DNA of 62,018 bases, taken from assembly GCA_026415495.1 (NCBI GenBank), contig JAOAGZ010000003.1, positions 1-62,018 on the forward strand, written 5' to 3'. Under the pieces are notes generated by a model. That model saw only the letters and a list, made by a program, of their open reading frames with translations. It had not been told where the DNA came from and searched no databases. This document shows, one piece after another, positions 7,014 through 23,227 of the stretch. Positions within the stretch are counted from its first letter, which is position 1; every line of letters starts with the position of its first letter. Source of the stretch: Ignavibacteria bacterium (lineage in GTDB: Bacteria > Bacteroidota > Ignavibacteria > Kapaibacteriales > UBA2268). Position numbers and translations under genes: made by a program.

Positions 7014-7670
7014 CTAATCTTGATTAGATTGAGCATAGAGTTTCGAAATTGAATCGTTCATATCTCGATGATAGATATAAGTTCTGTATTCAACTGATGC
7101 GACACAATAACCATTTTCAATTGTTCTCATAGCAAAATCCGCATCATCGCCGTACTTGATATTTCTGAAACCGCCAAGATTAACTGCAACATCCCTTTTC
7201 ACGAAAAAAGAGCCTCCGACATAGCATTCGTCAATATGTACCTGTTTTGAATTATCATAAAAATCAACAACATAAGGGTCGCCAATTATTTCAATACCAC
7301 CATAAAGAAGATCAACTTCAGGATGCTGTAAAAGAATGTTTCGCCTGAGTTCTAAATGATTGTCCTTATATTCATCATCGGAATCCAAAAAAGTGCAGTA
7401 AAGTCCGGAAGAAGAAAGAATTCCTACATTTCTCGAAAGTGGCAACCCTTTATTTTTATGAAACAGATAACGAATTCTTGAATCACTAAAATACTTTGAA
7501 CAAACATTAAAAGTATTGTCTGACGAACCATCATCAACTATGAGAAGCTCCCAATCCTGCTCCTTCTGATTAAGAACTGAAATTATTGCTCTATCTATTA
7601 TATGACCTCGATTATAAGCTGTAAGAATAATCGAAAAAAAAGGAATTCTATTATTATGATAAATATACAT
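7014..7670 (-). CDS. Glycosyltransferase family 2
   Basis: 218 aa with FSIILTAYNRG, VDDGSSDNT and DSDD motifs of the GT-A fold. Confidence 0.8.
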   Translation of the reverse strand: MYIYHNNRIPFFSIILTAYNRGHIIDRAIISVLNQKEQDWELLIVDDGSSDNTFNVCSKYFSDSRIRYLFHKNKGLPLSRNVGILSSSGLYCTFLDSDDEYKDNHLELRRNILLQHPEVDLLYGGIEIIGDPYVVDFYDNSKQVHIDECYVGGSFFVKRDVAVNLGGFRNIKYGDDADFAMRTIENGYCVASVEYRTYIYHRDMNDSISKLYAQSNQD

Positions 7671-9040
7671 TATCTACTAATAACAAATTTTTCGCTTAAA
7701 ATCTGGTTATCTGATTTTATCTGCATAAAATAAATTCCTGATGGAAAACCGTTTGCATTCCAATTAAATGAATTTTCTCCGGCGTTAAAATAGACATTTG
7801 GTAGTTGATATATCTCTTGCCCATACGAGTTAAATATCGTAATATTAACATTTTGTGCATCAGGCAAATAAATTCTAATGTTTAGTATGTCATTCGCAGG
7901 TTGTGGAGAAATTGATAAAATCTTAAAGTCAGAATGCCTATTATTATCAACGCTTGTTTTAAGGTATGTGGATTTGAATAATCCCTCGCCATAAACGCCT
8001 GCGAATATAATAAAACCAGCATCAGTTGTGTCCCAATTAGGTATCATAACTGTTCGAACTGATTTATTGGTAGGCAAACCATTGTTGAAAGCTTCAAAAT
8101 AATGTCCATAGATCGAAGAAACTAAAACTCCGGCATTCCCTGCAGCGGCAGCAACAAGGCGCGGATACCGTGGATGTTCTGCAAATTCAAAAATCTGATT
8201 GCCTGCACCAGTAAAATACTGCCAAGTTTTACCGGTATCTAAGCTTATGTATATTCCTTTTCCAATACTTGAACCATCAACTGTCAGTGAATCCACACCA
8301 CAAAGTACAATAGAAGGATCTATTGATGAAGGCAAAATTGAAAGCACACGTAATCCTTCCAAACCACTGCTTTCGCGGTGCCAAGATCTACCATAATCAT
8401 ATGATCTTAATACTCTCCCCTGAGATGATGCGTCTCCCGATAAAAAGAGTAAATTTGAAATTTTTGAAAAAGCAACTGAACGTGTTTCAACGCTCAAAGA
8501 GGACGAATTGCAAGTAATAAAATCATTATCCGAATAAACAAAGCCTTCACTTGTATTAATCGCGGCAGCAACGAAAAATTCATCTTGATTAATAATAGTT
8601 GAAGATACTCGATATAATTGATTGGAAGATTCGCATAATATATCTTCGCTCCAATTCTCTCCACGGTTTGTTGACAATAATATCCCGCCGCGGGTGAAAT
8701 GTCTGACTGCTACGAACCATTTATTGGGGTATCTTTTAGATTGATATATATCATATACCGATCGCTCATTTAACTGATATTTGGTAAAAGTTTTACCTGA
8801 ATCCATACTTTCCTGATAACCGTTTCCAATAAAAGGGAAATCGATATTCTTTTGCAACACATTAGTTGGGAAACCGCTTGAAGCAACTAATATTCTGTTC
8901 GGCTCATCAACAGGAGAAAAAATTTTGTTAATATAAGGATTGACCCCATCGATTTTTACCCAGTATTGGGCATACGATATTGAGGAAAATAGGAAAAGCA
9001 AAACAGCTACAAACATTAACTTTTTCATATTCAATTTCAA
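7670..9040 (-). CDS. BNR/Asp-box repeat beta-propeller protein with T9SS C-terminal sorting domain
   Basis: 456 aa with a signal peptide and Asp-boxes SMDSGKTF, STNRGENW, SYDYGRSW and SLDTGKTW. The C-terminal ..ISPQPANDILNIRIY..GIYFMQIKSDNQILSEKFVISR is T9SS-CTD-like. Confidence 0.7.
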   Translation of the reverse strand: MKLNMKKLMFVAVLLFLFSSISYAQYWVKIDGVNPYINKIFSPVDEPNRILVASSGFPTNVLQKNIDFPFIGNGYQESMDSGKTFTKYQLNERSVYDIYQSKRYPNKWFVAVRHFTRGGILLSTNRGENWSEDILCESSNQLYRVSSTIINQDEFFVAAAINTSEGFVYSDNDFITCNSSSLSVETRSVAFSKISNLLFLSGDASSQGRVLRSYDYGRSWHRESSGLEGLRVLSILPSSIDPSIVLCGVDSLTVDGSSIGKGIYISLDTGKTWQYFTGAGNQIFEFAEHPRYPRLVAAAAGNAGVLVSSIYGHYFEAFNNGLPTNKSVRTVMIPNWDTTDAGFIIFAGVYGEGLFKSTYLKTSVDNNRHSDFKILSISPQPANDILNIRIYLPDAQNVNITIFNSYGQEIYQLPNVYFNAGENSFNWNANGFPSGIYFMQIKSDNQILSEKFVISR

Positions 9041-9101: not shown

Positions 9102-9545
9102 TTAAATTCCAGTACTTCCAAATCCTCCATCACTCCTATGAGTATCAGGAAGTTCATCAACGAGTTGAAATTCAGCTTTTTCGTATCGAGCTATTACAAG
9201 TTGAGCAATTCTATCACCACGATTAACAACAAATGGTTCATCCCCAAAATTTGATAAAATAACTTTTATTTCTCCGCGATAGTCGCTATCTATTGTTCCA
9301 GGAGCATTCAAAGCAAATACTCCATATCGAGCAGCCAATCCACTACGTGAACGCACTTGCGCTTCGAATCCATCTGGTAAAGCAATAGCAAGAGAAGTCG
9401 GAACAAGTACTGTTTGCCTTGGTAAAATTATAATTGGTTCGTTTACAGCCGCATAAATATCCATTCCTGCAGAACCAGAAGTTTGATATGTAGGTAATGG
9501 CAAATCATCAAATTGATTATCTAATCGTTTAATTTGAATTTTCAT
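9102..9545 (-). CDS. dut: dUTP diphosphatase
   Basis: 147 aa with GSAGMDI, RSRSGLA, GTIDSDYRGE and C-terminal GGFGSTG motifs. Confidence 0.9.
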   Translation of the reverse strand: MKIQIKRLDNQFDDLPLPTYQTSGSAGMDIYAAVNEPIIILPRQTVLVPTSLAIALPDGFEAQVRSRSGLAARYGVFALNAPGTIDSDYRGEIKVILSNFGDEPFVVNRGDRIAQLVIARYEKAEFQLVDELPDTHRSDGGFGSTGI

Positions 9546-9580
9546 TTTTTCTCAATATTATTCAACATAAAGTATTGGGT

Positions 9581-11833
9581 TTATTTAATCAAATTTAATG
9601 CGCTTCCAGCTTTGAACCACTCAATTTGTTGAGCATTATAGGAATGCGAAACTTCGAAACTATCTATACTTCCATCTTTGTGATGAAGAACTACTATTAA
9701 CGATTTATTGGGGGCAAATTCCTTTAATCCAACAATGTCAATGGTATCATCCTCTAATATTTTATCATAATCACTTTTATCAATAAAAGTAAGTGCAAGC
9801 ATACCTTGCTTTTTCAGATTTGTTTCGTGAATACGAGCAAATGATTTAACTAATATTGCTTTAATGCCCAAATATCTTGGCTGCATAGCAGCGTGTTCGC
9901 GAGACGAACCTTCACCATAATTTTCATCACCTACCACAATTGACCCTATGCCAAGCGACTTATAATAACGCTGAACTTTTGGAACTTCATCATATTCACC
10001 AGTAATTTGGTTCTTTACATAGTTAGTTCTATCATTAAAGAAATTAACAGCCCCAATAAGTGTATTATTTGATATGTTATCTAAATGCCCTCGATACCGC
10101 AACCAAGGTCCTGCCATAGAAATATGGTCAGTAGTGCATTTTCCTTTTACTTTAATTAATAGTTTTAATCCGATAAAATCGTTTCCATCCCATTTATCAA
10201 AAGGTGGAATAATTTGAAGCCTTTCAGAATTTGGATCGATTATTATTTCTTGTTGAGAACCATCTTCGGCAGGCGCTTTGTAGCCGTTTTCGATAACTTC
10301 AAAACCACGCGGTGGGAGTTCAATTCCTTCTGGTTCTTTAAGCAGAACTTCTATTCCATCAGCATTAATTAGTTTATCTTTCATAGGATTAAAATCAAGC
10401 CTACCAGCGAGCACAAATGCTGTAACAATCTCAGGCGAAGCTACGAAAGCGTGAGTGTTTGGATTTCCATCATTTCTTTTAGCAAAGTTTCGATTAAATG
10501 AAGTGATAATGGAGTTTTTTTGTTGATCTTGAGCGTTAAGTCTCTTCCACTGCCCAATGCAAGGACCACAAGCATTTGCAAGGACAACACCACCAATTCG
10601 CTCGAACATATCTATAAATCCATCTCGTTCGATAGTATAACGAATCATTTCAGAACCGGGGGTAATTGTAAATTCACATTTGGCTGATAAATTATTATCA
10701 ATTGCTTGTTTGACAATAGAAATTGAACGTGTAATATCTTCATATGATGAATTAGTGCAAGAGCCAATCAACCCTGCAGAAAGTTCAACAGGCCAACCGT
10801 TTTTCTTTACTTCTTCAGCAAATCTTGAAATAGGATGAGCTAAATCAGGCGTAAAAGGTCCATTAATATGTGGTTCAAGCTCAGATAAGTTAATTTCAAT
10901 TAGTTGGTCAAAATACTTTTCAGGGTCTTGATAAACTTCTTTATCAGCAGTAACACATTCGAGCATAGAACTACAGAAATCAGCAATTTCTTTTCTTCCA
11001 GTAGCAATTAGATAATCATACATTTTCTCATCATACCCGAAGATAGAAGTAGTTGCACCAATTTCTGCCCCCATATTACAAATAGTTCCTTTGCCTGTAG
11101 CAGAAATAGATTCTGCACCATCACCGAAATATTCTAAAATATAACCAGTACCACCTTTGACAGTTAGCATACCAGCAACTTTAAGTATTACATCTTTTGC
11201 AGAAGTCCATCCCGATAACTTCCCAGTCAGTTTAATACCTATTAGTTTAGGGAATTTTAATTCCCAAGGCATTCCAACCATCACATCTACTGCATCAGCA
11301 CCGCCAACACCAATTGCAATCATCCCGAGACCACCAGCATTGACGGTGTGCGAATCAGTCCCAATCATCATTCCGCCTGGGAATGCATAGTTTTCAAGTA
11401 GCACTTGATGAATAATTCCTGCACCGGGCTTCCAGAAACCAATACCATATTTGTTAGACACTGATTCAAGAAAATCATAAACTTCTTTGTTTGTTTCAAG
11501 TGCAAACTCCAAATCTTTATGAGCTCCAACCTGAGCTTGCACCAAATGGTCGCAATGAACAGTTGTTGGCACAGCAACTTTATTTTTGCGAGCTTGCATA
11601 AATTGCAAAAGAGCCATTTGGGCAGTTGCATCCTGCATAGCTACACGATCGGGAGCAAACTCAACATAATCAGTCCCACGTTCGAATTCTCTTATTGAAT
11701 GGATATCGAACAAGTGAGTATATAGTATTTTTTCAGCAAGGGTTAGTGGTCGCTTGATTTTCGATTTAACATAATTCATTTTTTCTGTTAATGAATTATA
11801 ATGCTTGCGAAGCATATCAATATCGAGTATCAT
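9581..11833 (-). CDS. acn: Aconitate hydratase (about 750-aa type)
   Basis: 750 aa with [19 protein letters not shown], the cluster ligands SCTNSS and [11 protein letters not shown], and the swivel-domain motif [10 protein letters not shown]. Confidence 0.9.
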
Positions 11834-14835: not shown

Positions 14836-15101
14836 TATACCTCACCGAAACCACTCTCAAATAATTTCACAATCTCATCAATAGCTTCTTGTTCATCTGG
14901 TCCTTCTGCCCTCACTTTAATCTCACTTCCTTGTTCAGCCGCAAGCGTCATCACTCCAATAATACTTTTCCCATTGATTGCAAATTTATCTCTAATCAAA
15001 AATATTTCAGACTTAAATTTAGAAGCCAATTTTACTATACTTGCAGCTGGTCGAGTGTGTATGCCCGAACGATTAATAACTTTGACAACTTTTTCAACCA
15101 T
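14835..15101 (-). CDS. ptsH: Phosphocarrier protein HPr
   Basis: MVEKVVKVINRSGIHTRPAA contains the His-15 active-site motif, and KSIIGVMTL the Ser-46 region. I placed the start at the first ATG; the track starts 9 nt upstream at a TTG. Confidence 0.85.
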   Translation of the reverse strand: MVEKVVKVINRSGIHTRPAASIVKLASKFKSEIFLIRDKFAINGKSIIGVMTLAAEQGSEIKVRAEGPDEQEAIDEIVKLFESGFGEV

Positions 15102-15299
15102 TAGTAGCAATATCCATATTCATCAATTACTATATAAAAAACTATTATTGATTAATATAAATAAAATATGTGCTTTTTGCAAGTAGAAAATATTATGTAT
15201 CGTTTTTGTAACAATAATAATGTAAAAAGCAATAATAAAAATATATGAGAGACAGCTAAAATAAACAAGGAGTGAATTTCAGGATGTAATAGAAAAGTT

Positions 15300-15590
15300 T
15301 GAAGCAAGTAATAAAAAAACTACAAAGTGCTAAAGAAGAATTACAGTCGGTTAATGAAGAATTATATGCAGTTAATACTGAATTTCAATAGAAAAACTAA
15401 GAATTGACAAATTTAAATAACGACATTAGTCAATTTACTCAATAGAATTGATGTGAGATCTTTATATCTTGATAAAGATCTTAATAATAGAACATTTACA
15501 AATAAAATTAAACGTGTCTTTAAACTTGAAGATAGTGATATTAGAAGGTCTATTTTCCCAAAAATTGAAATTATCTACTTCATATTAAAA
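15300..15590 (+). pseudogene. Decayed internal fragment of a CheR-type methyltransferase / PAS sensor gene
   Basis: Own translation gives KLQSAKEELQSVNEELYAVNTEFQ*KN*ELTNLNNDISQFTQ*. A different frame then reads NRIDVRSLYLDKDLNNRTFTNKIKRVFKLEDSDIRRSIFP. This mirrors the LQSxNEEL coiled region and the following IFLDxDLxIRxFT...DIGRxI PAS start of such proteins. It carries two in-frame stops and a frameshift, and has no flanking remainder. Confidence 0.6.
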
Positions 15591-15604
15591 TGAAGTAGAT
15601 AATT
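15569..15604 (-). terminator. Hairpin downstream of the DinB-family gene
   Basis: AATTATCTACTTCA-TATTAAAA-TGAAGTAGATAATT is a perfect 14-bp stem. TTTCAATTTTT follows on the minus strand. Confidence 0.5.
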
Positions 15605-15660
15605 TATTATACTAATCTTAATTAATTATTTGATTAAATAAATCCTAAATGTAAACTAAT

Positions 15661-16158
15661 TTATTCTGGTGATTCCATACCAAATTGCGACCATTCTTCT
15701 TTTGATGGTCCATAAATACCGATAACAGGAAGTCCTGCTTGGCGCATCAAAACCGTAAGTTGTCCACGATGATGTATTTGGTGATATACTAAACCTTTCA
15801 ATAAATCTCTAAATTTCCAATTTTCACCATAAATATGAAATTCTTCATCTAATTTATGGTCATCATAATTTTTAACTTTTTCGATTAAAGAATTAGAAAA
15901 TTGGATGTATTTATCGATCATCGCATTAATATTTGGCGGCATTTTTTCTTGAAGGTCAAAATCTGGAAGTTGAATACCAGCCGCCTGCATCATTTCTCCA
16001 ACAGTGTAAACAATGTGCCAAACCAACATCCCAAGCGTCCTCCCTTCTGGATAGACTTTTTGAATTAAAGCCTCATCCGGAATTAACTGTAACAGCTTAA
16101 TAGTAGCTGAACTCTCTTGTGTCCAGTCTGAAATAAAATCATTTAGTGTAGAATACAT
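15661..16158 (-). CDS. DinB-family (DinB_2) metal-dependent protein
   Basis: 165 aa. The histidine pattern (LVWHIVYTVGEM ... YHQIHHRGQLTVLMRQAG) is typical of the DinB four-helix bundle. Confidence 0.8.
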   Translation of the reverse strand: MYSTLNDFISDWTQESSATIKLLQLIPDEALIQKVYPEGRTLGMLVWHIVYTVGEMMQAAGIQLPDFDLQEKMPPNINAMIDKYIQFSNSLIEKVKNYDDHKLDEEFHIYGENWKFRDLLKGLVYHQIHHRGQLTVLMRQAGLPVIGIYGPSKEEWSQFGMESPE

Positions 16159-16176
16159 TTTACTAATACCTTATGT

Positions 16177-16935
16177 TTATTGAGATAATTCTTTATTTTC
16201 TTTGTCATTGTTCGTTTCTTGTATGGATTCATTAGACAAAGTATGATCCAATACGTTTGACAAACTATCATTAGAAATTTCTGAGCTATCTGCTTGGCTT
16301 TCATGATTATGTTCAAAGTGCAGATGCCACCCATTTATCATTGACTTAAAATTGGAAGAAACTGTTTCGCCGTGCGTTGCAAGATAGATATGACCGATAA
16401 AGAATAAATTCAAAAAGAAACCAATTGTAATATGAAGCAACGCCATAGGCCAGACCCCACCCATTCCCATAATCTGTTCGGGAGCAAGTTCAGGAAACAT
16501 AAGTAACCACCCAGTAATGATAATACCCGGCACAGCCAAAAACATTATTAAAAAATAAGTTAGTCGTTGAAGTGGATTGAATTTATTTTCAGGAGTAGTC
16601 TCGAATGGATGTGGTTCACCTTTGAATACACCATAAAGATAATAACGCATTTGCTTAAGATACATTTCTTTTGCACCTCGTAATTGAGGTATATACTGTT
16701 TGTAGTTTCGAGTTTTAATATTAAAAAATAGATAATAAAGAAACACAACTGAAAGCAAAATACCACAAACATTATGAGTAACAATCGCATATTCAAATGG
16801 CATCAATAAAGAACTTGTATCTGAATATTGCATACTGACACCAGACAATATCAATAGAAAGAACAGAATTGCATTTATCCAATGCCAAAAACGTAACCAA
16901 CGTGGATACATATATACTTTGCGAACAGTACTCAT
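16177..16935 (-). CDS. Membrane b-type cytochrome, FdnI/HydC/PhsC family (PF01292-like)
   Basis: 252 aa with four or more hydrophobic helices and the N-terminal RWLRFWHWINA motif plus conserved His residues. Its start overlaps the 13-haem gene stop by 4 nt. It has a Ser/Asp/Glu-rich C-terminal tail. Confidence 0.8.
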   Translation of the reverse strand: MSTVRKVYMYPRWLRFWHWINAILFFLLILSGVSMQYSDTSSLLMPFEYAIVTHNVCGILLSVVFLYYLFFNIKTRNYKQYIPQLRGAKEMYLKQMRYYLYGVFKGEPHPFETTPENKFNPLQRLTYFLIMFLAVPGIIITGWLLMFPELAPEQIMGMGGVWPMALLHITIGFFLNLFFIGHIYLATHGETVSSNFKSMINGWHLHFEHNHESQADSSEISNDSLSNVLDHTLSNESIQETNNDKENKELSQ

Positions 16936-18404
16936 ACTTTTTTCTCCGCAATTTTTTTACGTTTTAAACTAAAATAAGCACGAAGAGAAGCGTGAATTAT
17001 AATACCTAATAAAGTGAGAACAAAAATTGCAATACTAACCAAATTTAAATATAGGTTTCTTGTTACACCAATAACATACGCATCGGAAAGAATAGTTCCA
17101 TTGATAAAACCATATTTCTCACGTGATAGCGATTTTTGATGACGATATAGTGTATTCATAAGCATTGAATTCATAGAATGACAAGTTTCGCAGCGCTTTA
17201 CAGTTTTCTCCGGTGGCAAAATATCGTGTGAACGATTAGGAGGTTCGATTGAAGAATGACAATCAATACAACGCACTCTATCCCAATGTGAGCTAATACG
17301 TGGCAACCAACGATGTGCTTTTTCAACAGTTGCAATACCATATTTGTTCATCATTGATTCGTCAGAGTGACAGGCAACACAATAGACCATTTTATTATTC
17401 ACAACAACATTAAATTTCATTCCTGATTTTGTGAAAACCGCACTTGGGATATCAGGAACGTGTTGGATATTATGTTCGCCGTGGCAATAGGTGCAATTCG
17501 GTGCATCTAAATTTCCACTCAAAAGAGATTTTCCGTGTACACTTTGAATATATTCAGTTGATACTTCACTATGGCAGGAATTGCATACATTATGAATATT
17601 AAAATGATTAATTCGAGACTCTGGGTGTGAAGCCTTTTGAAGGTTATGAGTACCATGGCAATCCACGCACATAGCAGCTTTTGTATTTCCAGCTAATAAT
17701 GCTGACCCGTGAACGCTCTTTTCATAATTAATCAATGAGTTAGCATACTGGCTCGAAATGAAAGTAATATGTAAATGGCAGGATAAACATAATTTTTCTT
17801 GATTTAATTTTCTTTGTAATTCTGAAATTTGATTACCTTTTGTGATTGGTTGCTTATGACAATAAATACAAGTAGGTGCATTGGGATTGTGAGCAACATA
17901 TTGAATTGAGTGTTCAGATTGTAGATGCTCTTTTTTTACATCTGAATGGCATTTACCACAAAATTCAGTTGAATTGGTGAAATGAAGTGGAGAATTTGGG
18001 TTACCAGGACTTTGAATATTGTGAGAACCATGACAACCTACGCAATTAATATCTGGACCGCCTTTACTCCCAGTAGCTTTTGCCATAGATGGGTGCCAAG
18101 GATGTTTACCTATTAGATTTGAGTGACAATTAGCACAATTGACACTCAAATCACCTTCTTTGTGAGGTATATCATCCGCTTTGAAACCAACATGACAATT
18201 AATACATAGCATTTTTGAATGTACAGAACGAGCAAGCTCAAATTTTCGCACATGAAGTTTCACTTTTCGACCATTTTTTTCCATATAAATATCCGGATCA
18301 CTATGGCAGCTAAGGCAATCATCATTAGATTGTGAATTCGTGTTTTGTACACTAAAAGATACTATGTAGAGGAAAGCAAATAAAATAGGTAAATATTTAA
18401 ACAT
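16932..18404 (-). CDS. Multihaem c-type cytochrome (13 CXXCH) with C-terminal membrane anchor
   Basis: 490 aa with a signal peptide. I counted 13 CXXCH motifs: CLSCH, CINCH, CANCH, CVGCH, CGKCH, CIYCH, CLSCH, CVDCH, CNSCH, CTYCH, CVACH, CIDCH and CETCH. The C-terminal hydrophobic helix is LVSIAIFVLTLLGIIIHA. Confidence 0.85.
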   Translation of the reverse strand: MFKYLPILFAFLYIVSFSVQNTNSQSNDDCLSCHSDPDIYMEKNGRKVKLHVRKFELARSVHSKMLCINCHVGFKADDIPHKEGDLSVNCANCHSNLIGKHPWHPSMAKATGSKGGPDINCVGCHGSHNIQSPGNPNSPLHFTNSTEFCGKCHSDVKKEHLQSEHSIQYVAHNPNAPTCIYCHKQPITKGNQISELQRKLNQEKLCLSCHLHITFISSQYANSLINYEKSVHGSALLAGNTKAAMCVDCHGTHNLQKASHPESRINHFNIHNVCNSCHSEVSTEYIQSVHGKSLLSGNLDAPNCTYCHGEHNIQHVPDIPSAVFTKSGMKFNVVVNNKMVYCVACHSDESMMNKYGIATVEKAHRWLPRISSHWDRVRCIDCHSSIEPPNRSHDILPPEKTVKRCETCHSMNSMLMNTLYRHQKSLSREKYGFINGTILSDAYVIGVTRNLYLNLVSIAIFVLTLLGIIIHASLRAYFSLKRKKIAEKKV

Positions 18405-18438: not shown

Positions 18439-18464
18439 GTAGGTAGCAATTGCTTGCTACCTAC
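18439..18464 (-). terminator. Rho-independent terminator after the monohaem cytochrome c gene
   Basis: GTAGGTAGCAA-(4 nt)-TTGCTACCTAC is a perfect 11-bp stem followed on the minus strand by TTTTTTC. Confidence 0.65.
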
Positions 18465-18474
18465 ACAGAAAATA

Positions 18475-18822
18475 TTATTCACTTTTAAGAGTAGTAAGCC
18501 ATTCAGATAATATTCTTAATTCTTCGTCACCACCTTTAAACTGTGCGGGATGCTTTTTGCCTTTTAAATCAGTTTCTTTTTTCAGATACTTTGCAAAAAA
18601 TTCAGCATCTCCTTCAACTGATGCATTTGATAAATCAATTGCACCTGATTTTTTCTTAGAAGCAATACCAAGTGAATTTACAGAATGGCACATATCGCAT
18701 TTCTGTTCTGTAAAAATTGTTTTACCATCTTTTGCTTCTTGTGCATTTACAGAAACATTAAATGATGCAACAGCGATAAATGCGATTGCTGCCAATGCTA
18801 AGAATAAATGTTTGATTTTCAT
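18475..18822 (-). CDS. Periplasmic monohaem class-I-like cytochrome c
   Basis: 115 aa with a signal peptide and a single CDMCH motif. Confidence 0.8.
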   Translation of the reverse strand: MKIKHLFLALAAIAFIAVASFNVSVNAQEAKDGKTIFTEQKCDMCHSVNSLGIASKKKSGAIDLSNASVEGDAEFFAKYLKKETDLKGKKHPAQFKGGDEELRILSEWLTTLKSE

Positions 18823-18896: not shown

Positions 18897-19415
18897 TTAT
18901 ATTGCAATTGTTAGAGTATTTTCAATTGGATCGAATACAGAATTATACTTTAATAAAGAAGGGACATCACCAGAAGCACTTCCTTTATCTTTTAGCGAAC
19001 CATCAGAAGAATAAAATTTTGCGCTATGTGCTGGACAAAAAATATCTCCTCCCGGTGAAGATGGCAAAACAACTTGTGCACCAGCATGTCTGCAAATTGA
19101 ATCAAGAACAACAAATTTATTTTGTTCAATTCTGAAAATGATTAATGGATTACCATTATTAACTGGTTTGTTGTTTTTATCGCGAACAATGACCATTATC
19201 ATTCCACCTACACTGCTTAAAGTTGGATAGTCAGAAATTTTCAGAACTGGATAATTTTCTGGTTTTGGTTGCTCTGGTGGCGCAACTGTCTCACCATCAT
19301 TGTCGCAAGCCGCAATAATTGAACTTAAAACACAACCGCACAAACTTATTCCCGCAATTTTTGCCGATTTTATCAAAAATTCTCTTCTATCATTATTCAT
19401 TCCCATTGCTGTCAC
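18897..19415 (-). CDS. Tat-exported Rieske [2Fe-2S] lipoprotein
   Basis: 172 aa with twin-arginine RREFLIK, the lipobox IIAAC, and Rieske ligands CRHAG..(17 aa)..CPAHSAKF. Confidence 0.85.
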   Translation of the reverse strand: MTAMGMNNDRREFLIKSAKIAGISLCGCVLSSIIAACDNDGETVAPPEQPKPENYPVLKISDYPTLSSVGGMIMVIVRDKNNKPVNNGNPLIIFRIEQNKFVVLDSICRHAGAQVVLPSSPGGDIFCPAHSAKFYSSDGSLKDKGSASGDVPSLLKYNSVFDPIENTLTIAI

Positions 19416-19418
19416 CTC

Positions 19419-20714
19419 CTAATAGAAAATATGTAATTGAAAAGCGAATTGAGAATTATACTTATCAACGTGGTCACGGTCAAAAATTTTGTATTCAGGA
19501 ATCAACGCTATGTAAGGTAAAAGGAATATTTTAGCTCCTAATGTATATCTATTAGCGTGATATTTTGGATTGCCTGAAGTTTTCATTTCTGTATTGCCAC
19601 GTTCAAAACGAAGATAAGCATAAGCAGGTTCAATTACCTGATAATTAAATTCAACAGTAAAATTATTAGTTATTCTTCGCTGCGACAATTCTGTTCTCAT
19701 ATATTCTGTCATTACTGCAAATTTCCCGAGAACACCAAAATGAAAGAAAATACTCGAAGTTGTTAGATAATGATTCCCAAAATATAATCCATCGTCCATT
19801 TTAAGCGTGCTATTGAAGAAATGGGTAGCACCAAGAAAAGAAGTCAGTCCAGTTCCAAAGTCAGGTGGATGCAAAGTAACTTTTGCGAGTCCTGATAACG
19901 TATTGTCTTTTACAAAGCCATTAGTCATTTCTGACAAATTTTTTGAATCGAATACACCTAACGACACATCTGCCCATTCAAAAGGCTCATAATCAAGTAT
20001 AGCTCCTAATTCAAAGTAATCGCAAGGAATTGTTGGAGGCGTCAGAGTTTTTGTAACTACTTGACGAGTCATAACTGTATGATCGTCCCAGTCTGTTCCA
20101 ATTGTTGCTTGCACCATTCCAATACGCAAAGATGGAAGTTTTTCAAATGGATGAAGAATAATACTAGCAGTATATGGAGTCTGACCGGGATAACGTTTTT
20201 TATTCTCAATTTCGTAAGCTAAATTGTAAGAGCCTTCTAAAATAACTCCGTCAATTGGTGTAATTGTTAAATAAGGGGTCAATATCATCAACATATTATC
20301 TCTTTTGGTTCCATAAGGATCAGGATAGTGAATGGTATCCTTAACATTTGGGTCAAATAAGTTGTCGTAAACCACAATTTTATTTTTTGTAGTAGGCCAC
20401 CGAGCAGATTGATAACGGAAATCAAGTCCGAACATAACATTATCAGTAAAAAGAGTATTGCTTTCCCTTATTGCATCGTACACAGGATTAATTCCAAGAT
20501 CTTCGGGTTTAATTAAGGCGATATCGCTGAACGACATCCAACCGGACATATTGCGTTGCAACCCCATATTAGGTGCAACGTGGCAATTTTGACATTTTGT
20601 GCCGAACGACTGCAATATAGAATATTGCGGTCGGGCATTCGCTACATCAAATATAATAATCAACAATAAAATTGTTATCACTAATCTGTTCATAAACATC
20701 TCTTTAAATTGCAC
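19419..20714 (-). CDS. Cyc2-like fused monohaem cytochrome / outer-membrane beta-barrel
   Basis: 431 aa with signal peptide MNRLVITILLLIIIFDVANA. A single CQNCH lies about 14 residues into the mature protein. The remaining ~370 aa have an alternating amphipathic beta-strand character and end ..FAFQLHIFY, an aromatic terminus typical of OMPs. The true start is probably the ATG at 20691-20693; the track starts at a GTG. Confidence 0.55.
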   Translation of the reverse strand: MQFKEMFMNRLVITILLLIIIFDVANARPQYSILQSFGTKCQNCHVAPNMGLQRNMSGWMSFSDIALIKPEDLGINPVYDAIRESNTLFTDNVMFGLDFRYQSARWPTTKNKIVVYDNLFDPNVKDTIHYPDPYGTKRDNMLMILTPYLTITPIDGVILEGSYNLAYEIENKKRYPGQTPYTASIILHPFEKLPSLRIGMVQATIGTDWDDHTVMTRQVVTKTLTPPTIPCDYFELGAILDYEPFEWADVSLGVFDSKNLSEMTNGFVKDNTLSGLAKVTLHPPDFGTGLTSFLGATHFFNSTLKMDDGLYFGNHYLTTSSIFFHFGVLGKFAVMTEYMRTELSQRRITNNFTVEFNYQVIEPAYAYLRFERGNTEMKTSGNPKYHANRYTLGAKIFLLPYIALIPEYKIFDRDHVDKYNSQFAFQLHIFY

Positions 20715-20779
20715 AAAATGTAGAATGAAAAATAATTTAAAATATAACCAAGATTAAAATAAGAACTTATAAAACTAAA

Positions 20780-20801
20780 GGCTGCAAAATACTTTGCAGC
20801 C
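20780..20801 (-). terminator. Hairpin terminator after the hexahaem lipoprotein gene
   Basis: GGCTGCAAA-(4 nt)-TTTGCAGCC is a perfect 9-bp stem followed on the minus strand by TTTAGTTTT. Confidence 0.55.
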
Positions 20802-20819
20802 CCGAAATATAATGAGACA

Positions 20820-21917
20820 CTATTTCTTCAAATAATCTAAACCGTTTTTCAAAATTGCAAGTGTCAATGCAGGATTATGTGCACCATTTGAGCGATCTTT
20901 TGCAATATACAAATAATTCAATAACACATCACCATCGGAACGAGGAATAACTCTTCTTTGTCCAGCAGCTTCGAGTTTTGCATATTCAGCAAGAACATTA
21001 TAGTCTGCATCACCAGGGTTACCAGCAGTAGCGATCAATAATCCTTTGTCAATAAGTAATTGACGGTATTCAGCAAGTAAAGTTTTAATTTCATTAGTTT
21101 TAGTTGTAGGAATACCTGATGGATGGCAGCTCTTGCAAGATTCAATAGTACTCATTTGAGCAACAGTCATCTTGAATGAGTGTCCACCAGCAGTAGGTGC
21201 AGTTGGATTGCTACCCATATGGCAGCTAACGCATCCTTTTGCAAGAACACTGTGAGGATTGCTTGTTGGATATGTTTCTGGACCATCAATCAAATTCAAG
21301 CCTTTGCCAGCAAATACATTTGCTACTGTACCATAGTGAGGACCAAATCTCGAATACATAGCAGTTGAGCTTGCAGCTGTTAATGTATCGAAGTCAGGAC
21401 TATTTCTCGTATAAGAACGAGCTTGATGGCAAGTAGCGCAGAGATTACCTGTTTTGAAATCAACATTTCCATCAGCAGCTGAACCTTTGTAAATCAGAGT
21501 AAATGGTTCTGTAACTCTCAAAGTATAGTCAGTTGAGTCAAGATTTTTGTGAATACTATGACAAGTTTTGCAGTCAATAGAAGTGATTCCAGTCTGCCCC
21601 CAAGTTTTTGAGGCGGTCATTTTACGAAAGCCATCTCCATTGTGGCAATCACCACAACCAGCACGACCTGCAGTGTAAGTGTAAGTTTCGCCTGTTTTAT
21701 GTAGCGAATAGTTGAATTGAGCAAATGCAAGATTTGTTGCAGTGGCATTATCAGAATGGCAAACTGCACAAGCAACGCTTGCATCTTTACCATCTTTGCC
21801 GTCTTTGCCATCCTTGCCAGCTGGACCTTGTGGACCTGCGGGTCCTTCTGGACCTTCGCAAGCAGTCATAAATAATACAAATGCTACTACTGAAAGAATA
21901 GAAAATAATTTTTTCAT
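20820..21917 (-). CDS. Hexahaem c-type cytochrome lipoprotein with collagen-like (GXY)8 N-terminal tether
   Basis: 365 aa with the lipobox LFMTAC followed directly by EGPEGPAGPQGPAGKDGKDGKDGKD. It has six CXXCH motifs: CAVCH, CGDCH, CKTCH, CATCH, CVSCH and CKSCH. Confidence 0.85.
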   Translation of the reverse strand: MKKLFSILSVVAFVLFMTACEGPEGPAGPQGPAGKDGKDGKDGKDASVACAVCHSDNATATNLAFAQFNYSLHKTGETYTYTAGRAGCGDCHNGDGFRKMTASKTWGQTGITSIDCKTCHSIHKNLDSTDYTLRVTEPFTLIYKGSAADGNVDFKTGNLCATCHQARSYTRNSPDFDTLTAASSTAMYSRFGPHYGTVANVFAGKGLNLIDGPETYPTSNPHSVLAKGCVSCHMGSNPTAPTAGGHSFKMTVAQMSTIESCKSCHPSGIPTTKTNEIKTLLAEYRQLLIDKGLLIATAGNPGDADYNVLAEYAKLEAAGQRRVIPRSDGDVLLNYLYIAKDRSNGAHNPALTLAILKNGLDYLKK

Positions 21918-22249
21918 AATAACTCCATAATAGTGAATGGAAAATAACTTCTTGTTTCAAATATAAATATTTTTAATTTATTAAACAAAATAAATATTAA
22001 AAAAAAATTAATCAATTATTCAATCGCTACTACTAAACATTATACATATCGATATGTTTTTTAGACTACTTAATATGATACATATTTTAACAATTAAATT
22101 AATTAGAAATTAATTATTTTTCATCGATTTTAATTTAATCTAAAAGGAAATAAGTATATTTTATTTAATCTTTGGATATGAAACAATTTTTTCTAATTCT
22201 CGTAAAGATATTTAATGAATCGTTATTTTATAATAAAAAGGAAATACAT

Positions 22250-23227
22250 ATGAGAGGAAAACTACTATTACTTACCGTATTATCAATGTGCATTTACACA
22301 AATGGCTTTGCTTTTCAAACAGAGAATTTGCCGAGTAATGACACAACAAATGTTTTGGAAGAGAACGACTTTTTTGAGGATGATAATGGAAAAAATCCAA
22401 TCATAGACATCTTCACTTCTGCATTAAGATTTAAACAATATAAACCATCGAAAAAACTAAGATTAAATTTCTACAATAATTCTCCAACGATAAATGTAGG
22501 TTATGGAATAAGCAATCATTTTTATGAAAGAAATTCATTTACATCGAAAATTAATAATAATGGAATAATTGACATCAAACTTGGTTCAACTGATTTACAC
22601 AGAGTTACTTCAAATGTAGTTGAATATGATAATGATTATTTATCATTTAGTTCTGCTGAAAACAAATTAAATTACAAGGAAAACGATAATAGTAATAATT
22701 ATATGGACTTACGACATATTAAGCTTGGTTTGAATAATGCTGACGGTTATGGTTGGAATTTTGGAGGAAATTCACATTTAGTGCTATACCATAGTTCGGG
22801 AATTAATTGGAATAGTTTATCATTTGATAACAATATTGCTGACAGTGTTTCAATTAATTCAACTAAAATTTTTGGCAAACAATTAAGATATGGTCGCGGT
22901 TTTGCTGGTGGGATAAAGTTATTTATCATTAACGGTGTTGCAATTTCTGCTGAATATGAACAAACTATGACTTTTCCACGTCATTTGTTCTGGAAAGATT
23001 TCGGATCGTTTATTATTGAAACAATAGCTCAGGAATTATCCAACAACTTCGTAGATGAAGTACTTGATAGTTCCCCAAGTTTTGCACCAGTCATACATTT
23101 TTTGCTCAAAAATGGTATCTCTTATGGATTTTATGAACTTTACAAAGACAAGATGAATTGGCCATTCAAAACAGTTCCACCACTAATGAACAAAACTTAC
23201 AAAATTGGAATAGATTTTATTTTATAA
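22250..23227 (+). CDS. Hypothetical secreted protein
   Basis: I moved the start to the ATG at 22250, which is preceded by AAGGAAA and gives the signal peptide MRGKLLLLTVLSMCIYTNGFA. I recognise no family. Confidence 0.5.
   Translation: MRGKLLLLTVLSMCIYTNGFAFQTENLPSNDTTNVLEENDFFEDDNGKNPIIDIFTSALRFKQYKPSKKLRLNFYNNSPTINVGYGISNHFYERNSFTSKINNNGIIDIKLGSTDLHRVTSNVVEYDNDYLSFSSAENKLNYKENDNSNNYMDLRHIKLGLNNADGYGWNFGGNSHLVLYHSSGINWNSLSFDNNIADSVSINSTKIFGKQLRYGRGFAGGIKLFIINGVAISAEYEQTMTFPRHLFWKDFGSFIIETIAQELSNNFVDEVLDSSPSFAPVIHFLLKNGISYGFYELYKDKMNWPFKTVPPLMNKTYKIGIDFIL

Follow-up and report, generated by a model that had tools for sequence, protein, structure and literature searches.

The locus lies in a 62,018-nucleotide stretch of DNA from an Ignavibacteria bacterium, an uncultured organism of the Kapabacteria type (the window, that is, the whole stretch that was analysed). 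Six genes on the minus strand encode, in order, a hexahaem lipoprotein, a porin that carries a single CXXCH haem motif (the haem-porin), a Rieske protein, a cytochrome c, a 13-haem cytochrome and a cytochrome b:

20820-21917, minus strand: hexahaem c-type cytochrome lipoprotein, with six CXXCH motifs and the lipobox FMTAC
20778-20803, minus strand: putative terminator-like hairpin of 11 bp in the gap between the hexahaem and haem-porin genes (consensus match only)
19419-20714, minus strand: fused monohaem cytochrome-porin gene, 431 amino acids when read from GTG
18897-19415, minus strand: predicted Tat-exported Rieske [2Fe-2S] lipoprotein (Pfam PF00355, E 3.5e-9)
18475-18822, minus strand: small secreted monohaem class I cytochrome c of 115 amino acids (Pfam Cytochrom_C; one CXXCH)
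18439-18464, minus strand: putative terminator-like hairpin, 11 bp with a T-run, 3' of the cytochrome c gene (consensus match only)
16932-18404, minus strand: 13-haem cytochrome bearing a signal at its N-terminus and, at its C-terminus, a transmembrane helix, LYLNLVSIAIFVLTLLGIII (13 CXXCH motifs; Pfam)
16177-16935, minus strand: membrane dihaem cytochrome b of the b561/HydC/PhsC type (PF01292, E 1.6e-28)
15661-16158, minus strand: DinB-family protein (Pfam DinB), conserved only in the closest locus, L007

The hexahaem lipoprotein, which matches the Pfam families Cytochrome_C7, c3_2 and C552, possesses a collagen-like (Gly-X-Y)n stalk at approximately 21783-21854, right behind the lipobox cysteine; its match to the Pfam Collagen model, at 19.8 bits, is under the cut-off. 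Of 41 loci, 36 have an orthologue encoded immediately upstream of the haem-porin, every one with a (GXY) run of 5–15 triplets. Such a collagen-stalked lipoprotein is an unusual part for an electron conduit and is worth separate attention. The 13-haem cytochrome resembles cytochromes of the NrfB, NapC and c7 families (Pfam), and its gene is overlapped by 4 nt by the start of the cytochrome b gene, the product of which scores 175 bits with the NCBIfam PhsC model, under the 204-bit cut-off. The terminator-like hairpins, both consensus matches, flank the porin–Rieske–cytochrome c unit. A scan for sigma-70 promoters returned fewer sites than shuffled sequence in this AT-rich host of the Bacteroidota/Ignavibacteria group, and is uninformative for that reason. 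The DinB-family gene is probably outside the electron-transfer system; the remaining genes of the window are housekeeping genes and type IX secretion cargo, and among them are no genes for oxidases or carbon fixation from which a direction of electron flow could be read.

The haem-porin has the layout of Cyc2, the fused monohaem cytochrome-porin that acts as an Fe(II) oxidase and is the main genomic marker for iron oxidation in metagenomes. Translation probably begins at the ATG at 20693, since the closest homologues are 424 amino acids long and align from M8. The protein is composed of the following features:

20634-20693, minus strand: Sec signal peptide, M8–A27, MNRLVITILLLIIIFDVANA (read from the sequence; homologues begin at M8)
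20439-20633, minus strand: N-terminal haem module, residues 28–92 (P-x-Y-S-I-L motif, CXXCH and a conserved G/R/GW segment)
20580-20594, minus strand: haem motif C41-Q-N-C-H45, within the N-terminal haem module
19422-20438, minus strand: predicted 16-strand β-barrel, residues 93–431 (AlphaFold2, DSSP and Foldseek)
20076-20087, minus strand: D210-D211-H212-T213 on an L3-like loop between strands 5 and 6 (alignment; loop position from the DSSP string)
19422-19439, minus strand: C-terminal signature Q426-L-H428-I-F-Y431 (homologue alignment)

The preliminary description had read this minus-strand frame as a signal peptide followed by CQNCH about 14 residues into the mature chain, with no other haem motif and a C-terminus ending in FAFQLHIFY, and all of this is borne out. 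The signal peptide is followed by RPQ, with cleavage read from the letters as falling before R28, which makes C41 residue 14 of the mature chain. The sequence contains a single CXXCH and neither a CX3CH nor a CX4CH motif. The homologue alignment, which had been proposed as a check on CXXCH, shows that C41, C44 and H45 do not vary among 49 homologues with identities as low as 31%, nor do G38, R54 and G58 in the same module, and each of the 148 full-length relatives (148/148) has exactly one CXXCH. Judged by this conservation, the CXXCH is no chance motif, and a haem would be expected to be attached to it. The haem segment has a pLDDT of 49–69 in the AlphaFold2 model, low as would be expected of a model that lacks the haem.

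The AlphaFold2 model (pLDDT 84.9 and pTM 0.80) forms a β-barrel from residue 93 to the C-terminus. DSSP assigns 18 strand elements, two of which belong to a clade-specific hairpin in a predicted extracellular loop (residues 108–135, a gap in most homologues), leaving 16 core strands in the predicted barrel. Foldseek matches the model to 16-strand porins with a probability of 1.00, in the order OprP (E 7e-11), OmpT, OprO, PorB and Omp32. The top structural matches in the Protein Data Bank, OprP (2o4v) and OprO (4rjx), are the templates published for Cyc2 (PMC8406198), and an authentic Cyc2 passed through the same pipeline as a control returned the same template set. The 16-strand barrel anticipated in the preliminary description is thus predicted with confidence, and the topology and an outer-membrane location would follow from the model. 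OprP/OprO and the general trimeric porins (OmpT/OmpU, PorB, Omp32 and OmpF) match with E-values of 7e-11 to 1e-8 and TM-scores of 0.45–0.56, and share with the haem-porin the 16 strands and, between strands 5 and 6, the long loop that resembles L3. However, sequence identity to them is just 9–14%, no Pfam porin model matches the haem-porin, and the haem-porin differs in its added N-terminal haem module and in the invariant His, Asp and Gln residues of its predicted lumen. No solved structure of Cyc2 or a relative came up in sequence searches of the Protein Data Bank, for which the haem-porin and the profiles A3 and A4 served as queries.

Relatives of the haem-porin form 371 representative clusters (50% identity clusters) at E ≤ 1e-3, ranging over Kapabacteria, Ignavibacteria and Myxococcota; for the distant relatives only a few taxon names are available, belonging to Myxococcota and Ignavibacteriota. 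Profiles of the close relatives (A1, the target clade) and of the distant members (A4, the wider superfamily) match each other over their full length with 100% probability. The signature of the family is CXXCH-x-N-x-x-GG-x-x-R, then DDHT, then a C-terminal Q-x-H-x-[FW]-Y. GG-x-x-R follows the haem motif in 146/148 members; DDHT is present in 125/148, compared with 1/194 canonical Cyc2 proteins, and the C-terminal Q-x-H-x-aromatic-aromatic in 132/148, compared with 0/194. D211, H212, H428 and Y431 are invariant in the homologue alignment, which has a conservation of 90% or more at D210, T213, Q426 and F430. The DDHT loop is a candidate cation-binding or haem-ligand site, and strand alternation would turn H428 and Q426 towards the lumen, at the rim on the periplasmic side.

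The Rieske protein has a twin-arginine signal (DRREFLIK), a lipobox (IAAC) and the cluster ligands CRH...CPAH. The gene had been described as a Rieske lipoprotein gene 4 nt downstream of the haem-porin; identity and adjacency hold, and the distance becomes 3 nt to the earliest start (GTG 19415), or 12–18 nt from the porin stop to the ATG codons. The pairing, which the preliminary description did not recognise from described Cyc2 loci, is real and is a conserved hallmark of the haem-porin family: a Rieske gene with a Tat signal adjoins the porin gene in 29/37 of the close loci, from Kapabacteria and Ignavibacteria, and a Rieske gene does so in 6/7 distant loci, two Myxococcota MAGs among them. 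Canonical Cyc2 loci, by comparison, have a Rieske gene nearby in only 4/34 cases, where it encodes the membrane-anchored subunit of a bc-type operon, and true bc-type operons were seen only beside some canonical Cyc2 genes. From this adjacency, the Rieske protein may interact physically with the haem-porin. One subclade (L001, L005, L027–L029, L031, L032, L039 and L043) has no Rieske, 13-haem or cytochrome b genes and encodes a small lipoprotein cytochrome c in their place, and at one distant locus, L168, the haem-porin gene has no redox neighbour. The order of the six-gene cluster is retained down to 36% porin identity. Orthologues of the small cytochrome c are present in 35 loci, the 13-haem cytochrome is encoded downstream in 20 of the 27 loci with enough flanking sequence, and 14 other loci encode a fusion of the cytochrome b with a 6-haem domain.

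Several known systems share parts with this cluster. The Rieske protein is like the Rieske subunit of bc1/b6f complexes and the arsenite oxidase subunit AioB in its Tat signal and CxH...CxxH ligands, and its top matches in the Protein Data Bank, which are weak, are bc1 Rieske proteins (E 0.007–0.03). It is, however, a stand-alone lipoprotein without a bc-type cytochrome b or molybdoenzyme partner, and in the target clade (CRHAGA...CPAH) it is without the disulfide cysteines that high-potential Rieske proteins typically have. The pairing that defines bc1/b6f, a membrane-anchored Rieske protein with a bc-type cytochrome b, is replaced here by a Tat lipoprotein and a PF01292-type cytochrome b. 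A role in thiosulfate, polysulfide or arsenite metabolism, considered for the PhsC-like cytochrome b and AioB-like Rieske protein, was rejected, as no molybdoenzyme or catalytic subunit is present or recurrent.

The barrels of MtrCAB, MtoAB/PioAB and Geobacter OmbB-OmaB-OmcB have 20–26 strands, are haem-free and sheathe a multihaem protein. The present cluster is similar to these systems in having an outer-membrane barrel gene beside those for a multihaem lipoprotein and periplasmic cytochromes, and an inner-membrane quinone-linked cytochrome. It differs in a predicted barrel of 16 strands with its own single haem site, and in the Rieske protein that belongs to the set. Defined as a haem-free 20–26-strand barrel around a multihaem cytochrome, the porin-cytochrome complex does not include the haem-porin; defined as a barrel gene clustered with genes for multihaem cytochromes, a lipoprotein included, it does. 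Compared by description, the cytochrome b and 13-haem cytochrome resemble Geobacter CbcL, in which a dihaem cytochrome b and a periplasmic domain with nine haems form one protein (PMC9129911), in pairing a multihaem cytochrome c with a membrane cytochrome b of the PF01292 type, although here the genes are split and overlap, and the multihaem protein has 13 haems and a transmembrane anchor.

The six-gene cluster looks like a complete quinone-to-outside electron path, and the haem-porin and Rieske family points to an undescribed way of electron transfer across the cell envelope. To our knowledge, the route of electrons from the single haem of Cyc2 into the periplasm is not yet settled. We propose that the haem peptide of the haem-porin would sit at the periplasmic mouth of the barrel, with H45 as the proximal haem ligand. 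One candidate for the distal ligand is the lumen-facing H428; another is the invariant M143, which lies close to where strand 2 begins but, by the predicted topology, near the extracellular end. The pore would admit a small solute with redox activity, for example Fe2+ or Mn2+, which would perhaps bind at the acidic DDH site and would exchange an electron with the haem. Electrons would be shuttled by the Rieske lipoprotein and the small cytochrome c between the porin haem and the remaining chain, which in the target clade would be linked to the menaquinone pool by the 13-haem cytochrome and the CbcL-like cytochrome b, with the collagen-stalked hexahaem lipoprotein as an additional component.

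We infer the substrate and the direction of flow from these parts, and the multihaem, cytochrome b and Rieske neighbours fit electron flow either way. Inward flow, in which an extracellular donor would be oxidised as by Cyc2, appears somewhat likelier than outward flow and comes close to an even call, since all exported Rieske proteins known to us act in an oxidising branch at positive potential; this argument is weakened by the missing high-potential disulfide cysteines in the Rieske protein of the target clade. Transfer from a Rieske centre at positive potential to low-potential Fe(III) oxides would, moreover, be uphill. The reverse assignment, in which menaquinol would be oxidised by the cytochrome b and 13-haem cytochrome and the electrons would leave through the haem-porin and hexahaem lipoprotein to Fe(III), Mn(IV), humic substances or an electrode, is a possibility that we consider somewhat less probable. 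Multihaem lipoproteins with a quinol-dehydrogenase-like module are the classic set of outward, metal-reducing conduits, and the CbcL-like module and the multihaem lipoprotein beside an outer-membrane barrel are what metal reducers typically possess. Furthermore, no terminal oxidase is present in the cluster or recurrent beside it, and Ignavibacteriaceae relatives are listed among Fe(III) and humic-substance reducers (PMC6344600). Against outward flow, a 16-strand barrel cannot sheathe a multihaem wire, unlike MtrB, and from one haem at the periplasmic mouth the distance to the cell surface would be too great for electrons to pass directly to solids (by the geometry in PMC8406198). In addition, the most widely conserved partner is the Rieske protein and no multihaem cytochrome, distant members having only Rieske and YceI-like neighbours.

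Cyc2 is known from Acidithiobacillus, Leptospirillum (as Cyt572), Zetaproteobacteria, Gallionellaceae and Chlorobium (PMC8406198, PMC7029218). The haem-porin is like it in having a signal peptide, a single early CXXCH, a length of approximately 400–430 amino acids, a fused OprP/OprO-like barrel of 16 predicted strands, an N-terminal module on the predicted periplasmic side and the motif start A-x-P-x-[FY]. The architecture that the preliminary description called a Cyc2-like fused cytochrome-porin therefore stands; membership of the Cyc2 family, as judged by sequence, does not. BLASTP against 120 Zetaproteobacterial (cluster 1) Cyc2 sequences gave a best E-value of 0.034, short of E ≤ 1e-5. The MS/MS peptide table of PMC8406198 was the source of the Cyc2 bait. 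Hidden Markov models of the four motif-defined canonical Cyc2 groups score the haem-porin at −0.7 to 3.4 bits, whereas the canonical groups score one another at 24–141 bits. For the haem-porin itself there is thus no significant similarity to Cyc2 families, the outcome that the preliminary description had named as telling against its assignment. The published Cyc2 criteria (Keffer et al. 2021, PMC8406198) comprise AXPXFAR[Q/K][T/Y] upstream of CXXCH, described as unique to Cyc2, PXL downstream of it and a length of at least 365 amino acids. At 424–431 amino acids the haem-porin exceeds this length, but FAR[QK][TY] is found in 0/148 family members and 187/194 canonical Cyc2 proteins, and PXL in 0/148 and 140/194, respectively. 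The stretch before CXXCH reads A-R-P-Q-Y-S-I-L-Q, then a two-residue insertion, and retains only A-x-P-x-[FY]; the family has [SA]-[IL]-L-Q here (with the insertion in the target clade) and N-x-x-GG-x-x-R after the haem motif. The neighbours differ too: Cyc2 is accompanied by Cyc1, rusticyanin or cytochrome oxidase, and the haem-porin by a Tat-exported Rieske lipoprotein and, at this locus, also by multihaem cytochromes and a cytochrome b. Pfam and NCBIfam scans found no match for the haem-porin, and likewise none for authentic Cyc2 and canonical-motif proteins; the empty scan, considered as weak evidence against Cyc2, was dropped because it carries no information when authentic Cyc2 matches nothing either. 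By these comparisons, the haem-porin is a member of a separate, unnamed family, not a canonical Cyc2, and since it falls outside the Cyc2 family, a role as Fe(II) oxidase would be one by analogy.

The depth of the separation was addressed with hhalign, using signal-peptide-trimmed profiles and unrelated CXXCH segments as negative controls (untrimmed runs were inflated, at 74–92%). The A1 haem module aligns with the four canonical groups at a probability of 81–89% and scores of 29–32, where the unrelated controls reach 77% and 28, and the canonical haem modules align among themselves at 99.3% or higher and scores of 92–122. The A4 haem module reaches 93.6–97.2% and scores of 36–54 against the canonical ones, above the controls. 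By these profiles, similarity of the target clade to the Cyc2 haem module is at background level, and the distant family members alone have a weak, above-background similarity. These values bear on convergence, the fusion of a haem peptide to a porin independently of Cyc2 with no shared fused ancestor, which we regard as rather doubtful. It would account for the background-level scores of the target clade, for family signatures that differ from those of Cyc2 in every case, and for barrel-only profiles that match the canonical groups at 25% probability or less. However, the barrel test has little power, as the barrels of some canonical pairs are likewise undetectable (G0–G1 and G0–G2, both at 0.4%), and in full-length comparisons A4 aligns with G0 over 203 collinear barrel columns at 79% and with G2 at 92%. 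Also at odds with convergence are the A4 haem-module scores and the motif [AS]-[LI]-P-x-F-[AS]-x-x-T-G-x-x-C-x-x-C-H, common to both families and at an equal distance from the signal peptide cleavage site.

That the haem-porin is a bona fide Cyc2 of clusters 1–3, and a dedicated Fe(II) oxidase, is unlikely. The architecture and fold class, the retained A-x-P-x-[FY], the canonical six-residue spacing to the first cysteine in 83/134 members and the A4 haem-module probabilities agree with such an assignment, as do the Cyc2-type matches in Ignavibacteriales MAGs reported by FeGenie-based surveys (PMC8478452, PMC6344600). It is contradicted by the BLASTP and profile scores, by the loss of both Cyc2 motifs in all 148 relatives, by A1 haem-module scores near those of the controls and far from those of the canonical groups, and by partners that are Rieske and multihaem proteins, not a Cyc1-type cytochrome. 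Still less probable is an iron-acquisition or redox-sensing porin, with redox chemistry of iron in the pore serving uptake or signalling. The gene at L003 comes after an ECF sigma/anti-sigma pair, distant loci have only Rieske, YceI-like and small membrane protein genes and no quinone-linked module, and the invariant DDH motif could bind Fe2+, but cytochromes with 20 haems and a quinone-linked cytochrome b, here and in approximately 20 related loci, would be excessive for uptake or sensing, and no transporter or regulator is recurrent near the gene. An ordinary diffusion porin with a haem-free CXXCH would suit the general-porin fold and the missing curated family match, but has next to no credibility given that C, C and H are invariant in approximately 150 sequences down to about 20% identity, that the neighbours are all redox proteins, and that the null scan is weightless, Pfam and NCBIfam having no model for authentic Cyc2 either.

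The reading that we prefer, and consider likely, is that of an outer-membrane protein of Cyc2 architecture (one c-type haem peptide and a 16-strand porin) that belongs to a separate family and has a Rieske lipoprotein partner. More speculatively, the family may be a phylum-spanning new class of outer-membrane redox porins with a Tat-exported Rieske lipoprotein as dedicated periplasmic partner, a class that either is a deep-branching sister of Cyc2 or was invented independently. If so, this class of haem-porins would have a different haem environment, possibly bis-His through the invariant C-terminal histidine, its constriction loop would possibly bear a DDH metal site, and in the Kapabacteria clade the presumably trimeric, collagen-stalked hexahaem lipoprotein would match a trimeric porin. 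As far as the literature searched shows, it would also be the first case of an outer-membrane electron conduit to which an iron-sulphur protein connects directly.

The near-obligate adjacency of the Rieske lipoprotein offers a concrete and testable periplasmic partner, of a kind that canonical Cyc2 does not have, and the invariant DDHT and C-terminal histidine are direct targets for mutagenesis. A second family with the Cyc2 architecture would escape the motif and HMM criteria by which Cyc2 is recognised. Kapabacteria, Ignavibacteria and Myxococcota are lineages mostly viewed as heterotrophs, and surveys may overlook a whole group of outer-membrane redox porins in them.

The open reading frame at 19419–20714 (−), encoding the Cyc2-like fused monohaem cytochrome-porin (haem-porin), is real, as the preliminary description stated, although translation probably begins further in, at the ATG at 20693, because the homologues are 424 aa long and their alignment begins at M8. 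A protein starting there opens with the typical signal peptide MNRLVITILLLIIIFDVANA; RPQYSILQSFGTKCQNCH comes next, and C41 occupies position 14 of the mature chain. A signal peptide and a haem site at about this position had both been read from the sequence, and both readings hold. C41 opens the one CXXCH of the protein, which had likewise been described as its only haem motif, and neither CX3CH nor CX4CH is present in the sequence. The invariance of the motif, proposed earlier as a check, was borne out in an alignment of 49 homologues with identity down to 31%, in which C41, C44 and H45 are invariant; the QLHIFY at the C-terminus contributes two further invariant residues, H428 and Y431.

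The fold was predicted with AlphaFold2 using the 49-sequence alignment; haem is absent from the model, and strands were taken from the DSSP listing. In the model (pLDDT of 84.9 and pTM of 0.80), residues 93–431 are nearly all β-strand, and the haem peptide (residues 25–60) has low confidence, as expected because the model was built without haem. Two of the 18 DSSP strand elements, 111–117 and 125–131, fall in a segment gapped in most homologues, which suggests an extracellular hairpin specific to the clade and a core of 16 strands. This reading is supported by the alternation of short turns and long loops and by the link between strands 5 and 6, a loop of 31 residues that includes a short helix. 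The modelled loop pattern matches that of a general porin with an L3-like constriction loop, which would place both termini, and with them the haem module, on the periplasmic side. A Foldseek search against the PDB returned 16-strand porins at a probability of 1.00, with OprP as the best match (PDB entry 2o4v, E = 7e-11), followed by OmpT, OprO (4rjx), PorB and Omp32. OprO and OprP are also the published structural homologues of the Cyc2 barrel (PMC8406198), and authentic Mariprofundus ferrooxydans Cyc2 (alignment A3), run through the same pipeline as a control, matched the same templates with similar scores. The Cyc2-like architecture of the preliminary description, comprising a signal peptide, one CXXCH and a predicted 16-strand barrel, is confirmed.

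Keffer et al. define Cyc2 by structure (a protein of 365 aa or more with a signal peptide, a single CXXCH and a 16-strand porin), by the motifs AXPXFAR[Q/K][T/Y] before and PXL after the CXXCH, and by a BLAST or FeGenie HMM match to a known Cyc2 (PMC8406198). Two sets of Cyc2 sequences were used for comparison. Peptides identified by MS/MS in purified Cyc2(PV-1) served as bait in a protein database and yielded 169 proteins; among the 120 listed, all named ones are from Mariprofundus or other Zetaproteobacteria, except for one partial metagenome-assembled genome (MAG) sequence labelled Deltaproteobacteria, and those inspected carry AIPAFARQTGAACLSCHFQTFPAL. A metagenome scan with the pattern P-x-F-A-R-[QK]-[TY]-xxx-CxxCH gave 120 loci, from which 79 full-length, single-haem proteins of 365–600 aa were kept; these form four main BLAST groups (G0–G3), with the Zetaproteobacterial sequences in G2.

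BLASTP of the haem-porin against the 120 Zetaproteobacterial Cyc2 sequences gave a best E-value of 0.034, and the HMMs of G0–G3 score it at −0.7 to 3.4 bits, compared with 24–141 bits for the canonical groups on each other's HMMs. Signature counts separate the two families.

Sequence signatures in 148 full-length haem-porin relatives and 194 canonical Cyc2 proteins
FAR[QK][TY]: haem-porin family 0/148; canonical Cyc2 187/194 (partly true by construction, because the canonical sequences from the metagenome scan were chosen by this very motif)
PXL after CXXCH: haem-porin family 0/148; canonical Cyc2 140/194
GG-x-x-R after CXXCH: haem-porin family 146/148; canonical Cyc2 0/194
DDHT: haem-porin family 125/148; canonical Cyc2 1/194
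C-terminal Q-x-H-x-aromatic-aromatic: haem-porin family 132/148; canonical Cyc2 0/194

Canonical Cyc2 membership is rejected on the tested features, namely the BLASTP and G0–G3 HMM results and the absence of the FAR and PXL motifs. Pfam and NCBIfam scans returned no match for the haem-porin or for authentic Cyc2; because these collections have no model that matches authentic Cyc2, the empty haem-porin scans are uninformative either way. Cyc2-type matches are known in Ignavibacteriales MAGs from FeGenie-based or similar surveys (PMC8478452, PMC6344600), and these may or may not belong to the haem-porin family.

A profile search covering 1.84 billion representative proteins found 371 clusters of the haem-porin family with E ≤ 1e-3, of which 192 have E ≤ 1e-10. 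The distant full-length members start with [AS]-L-P-R-F-A-L-x-T-G-x-x-C-x-x-C-H-x-N-P-T-G-G, which is much closer in look to the Cyc2 motif, with a T-to-C gap of three residues as in Cyc2(PV-1). A profile from 27 of these distant members (A4) matches the target-clade profile (A1) over the full length with 100% probability (E ~1e-98); judged by this profile similarity, the members of both are one superfamily.

The resemblance to Cyc2 could reflect common descent or convergence, with a haem peptide fused to a porin independently of Cyc2. In hhalign comparisons of the haem modules, with signal peptides trimmed, the canonical groups match each other at a probability of at least 99.3% (score 92–122), A4 matches them at 93.6–97.2% (36–54) and A1 at 81–89% (29–32), and negative controls, unrelated CXXCH segments of neighbouring cytochromes, reach 13–77% (19–28). 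The A1 scores lie near the controls and the A4 scores above them; the target clade alone is thus at background level, and the wider superfamily is above it. Barrel-only comparison of the family with the canonical groups gives at most 25%, a test of little power because it is equally weak between some canonical groups (0.4% for G0–G1 and G0–G2). Full-length comparison aligned 203 collinear barrel columns between A4 and G0 (79%), and A4–G2 reached 92%. The haem-porin family is probably a deep sister family of Cyc2, and an independent fusion is less likely.

The haem-porin gene is part of a minus-strand cluster.

Haem-porin gene cluster in transcription order, with terminator-like hairpins
20820–21917 (−): hexahaem lipoprotein, first
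19419–20714 (−): haem-porin, second
18897–19415 (−): Rieske lipoprotein (PF00355; twin-arginine signal DRREFLIK; lipobox IAAC)
18475–18822 (−): monohaem cytochrome c, 115 aa (cytochrome c115)
16932–18404 (−): 13-haem cytochrome with C-terminal membrane helix
16177–16935 (−): PF01292-type cytochrome b, 252 aa (4 nt overlap with the 13-haem gene; PhsC model 175 bits, below cut-off)
(−): DinB-family gene, after cytochrome b, last
20778–20803, 18439–18464, 15568–15605 (−): strong terminator-like hairpins after the hexahaem, cytochrome c and DinB genes

The hairpins split the cluster into three units (hexahaem; porin–Rieske–cytochrome c; 13-haem–cytochrome b–DinB) and could give these different expression levels. 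The Rieske gene reported downstream of the porin is indeed directly next to it, with a gap to its earliest possible start of 3 nt, not 4.

In 41 loci of MAGs of the Kapabacteria/Ignavibacteria type, neighbours were counted by tblastn. Immediately upstream of the haem-porin, 36 of the 41 have the hexahaem gene; the Rieske gene is directly downstream in 29 of the 37 with enough sequence, and the 13-haem and cytochrome b genes are found in 20/27, a pattern kept down to 36% porin identity. Rieske orthologues always carry the Tat motif and usually the lipobox. In one subclade a small lipoprotein cytochrome c takes the place of three genes, those for the Rieske protein, the 13-haem cytochrome and cytochrome b; no recurrent oxidase or other additional gene was found near the haem-porin loci. 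In 14 related loci (for example, L013 11203–13398), cytochrome b is fused to a six-CXXCH (hexahaem) domain, and the resulting protein of ~735 aa resembles Geobacter CbcL (PMC9129911). The closed MAGs JAVSMQ010000001.1 and OW818654.1 are among the Kapabacteria genomes with the cluster. Several cluster-bearing MAGs (L011, L018, L019, L030, L033, L037, L040 and L045) are labelled Hyphomicrobiales, Chloroflexota or Desulfobulbaceae, which looks like mis-binning or mislabelling and not a real distribution.

The Rieske pairing is the deepest conserved feature of the superfamily. Among seven distant members looked up for neighbours, one or two Tat-signal Rieske genes directly adjoin the porin in six (L003, with a tandem-Rieske lipoprotein; L169 and L170, both Myxococcota MAGs; L171, L172 and L173), and L168, with no adjacent Rieske gene, is the sole exception. 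In three of the six, the gene for a YceI-like periplasmic protein lies directly downstream, followed by that for a small conserved membrane protein (~90–110 aa), which has two hydrophobic helices and contains the motif D(D)FGDP..W.D.F.PGLD (L169 8234–9079, L170 5430–6413, L173 5362–6260); in L003 the membrane protein is adjacent and the YceI-like gene is ~6 kb off on the opposite strand (9268–9606 and 15070–15747). Neither is encoded in the window, and no multihaem genes adjoin the porin at the six loci. The control comprised 34 canonical Cyc2 loci whose flanks were long enough, and 4 of them have a Rieske gene within 3 kb. Its product in these 4 is a subunit of a bc-type operon, membrane-anchored and of the high-potential type (CTHLGC...CPCHGS), a link that differs from the stand-alone Rieske lipoprotein beside the haem-porin. 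In the literature searched, no cytochrome-porin of these lineages was described as having a Rieske partner.

At the metagenome loci L074, L144, L146 and L103, a canonical-motif Cyc2 lies directly upstream of a bc-type operon with a membrane-anchored Rieske protein and a split cytochrome b, and two of these operons also contain a multihaem cytochrome; the arrangement links Cyc2 genetically to complex III. The two cysteines of the stabilising disulfide in bc1-type Rieske proteins (CxHxxC...CxCH) occur in roughly half of the orthologues (L013–L046); they are replaced in the window Rieske (18897–19415) and its clade (CRHAGA...CPAH) and in several others, so the redox potential of the Rieske partner may differ between clades.

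The hexahaem lipoprotein has a collagen-like (Gly-X-Y)n run, GPE-GPA-GPQ-GPA-GKD-GKD-GKD-GKD, directly after the lipobox cysteine (residues 22–45; 21783–21854 (−)). All ~30 orthologues examined (loci within L007–L047) have such a run, of ~5 to 15 triplets, with 17–47 residues between the lipid-anchor cysteine and the first haem cysteine. The repeat suggests a stalk formed by a trimeric triple helix of ~5–13 nm, which would be non-conducting and hence an unusual element in an electron conduit. No published pairing of a collagen-like segment with a multihaem cytochrome turned up in a literature search.

The window belongs to an uncultured bacterium of Kapabacteria/Ignavibacteria type. At 92% identity, the protein nearest to the haem-porin is annotated 'hypothetical protein, Candidatus Kapabacteria bacterium', and the closest genome locus is L007 (91% identity). 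The window is AT-rich (G+C ~33%) and its remaining genes are housekeeping. Three proteins (7670–9040, 45192–47561, 47566–49437 (−)) carry C-terminal Por_Secre_tail domains for type IX secretion sorting, consistent with a host of the Bacteroidota/Ignavibacteria lineage. TCA-cycle genes (aconitase and isocitrate dehydrogenase) and PTS enzyme I/HPr, also present, suggest a heterotrophic background. A divergent 351-aa open reading frame at 22172–23227 (+) adjoins the cluster and has an internal signal-peptide-like start (MRGKLLLLTVLSMCIYTNGFA); Pfam and NCBIfam scans gave it no significant family match, the sole match being weak (DUF3440, E = 0.02).

The haem module of Cyc2 has been proposed to plug the periplasmic barrel mouth (PMC8406198), and by analogy that of the haem-porin would do the same. 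Residues of the last strand alternate (F425, L427, I429 and Y431 versus Q426, H428 and F430), so the side chains of the invariant H428 and of Q426 are expected to point into the lumen at the periplasmic rim. Candidates for the distal haem ligand are H428 and M143, and cations could plausibly bind at the invariant DDH of the L3-like loop. With 16 strands and one haem, the barrel would be unable to wire electrons to a solid surface, and the substrate should therefore be small and pore-entering. Electron shuttling would fall to the Rieske lipoprotein and cytochrome c115, and the 13-haem cytochrome and cytochrome b would couple the chain to menaquinone.

To our knowledge, exported Rieske centres have positive potentials and serve oxidising branches, which favours inward flow, in which Fe(II), Mn(II) or some other donor would be oxidised, although the Rieske protein of the window clade is without the disulfide cysteines of the high-potential types. 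The combination of multihaem cytochromes and cytochrome b is typical of the opposite direction, outward flow for metal reduction. The haem-porin belongs to the cytochrome-porin theme as a new variant with a conserved Rieske partner, and its proposed function is plausible.
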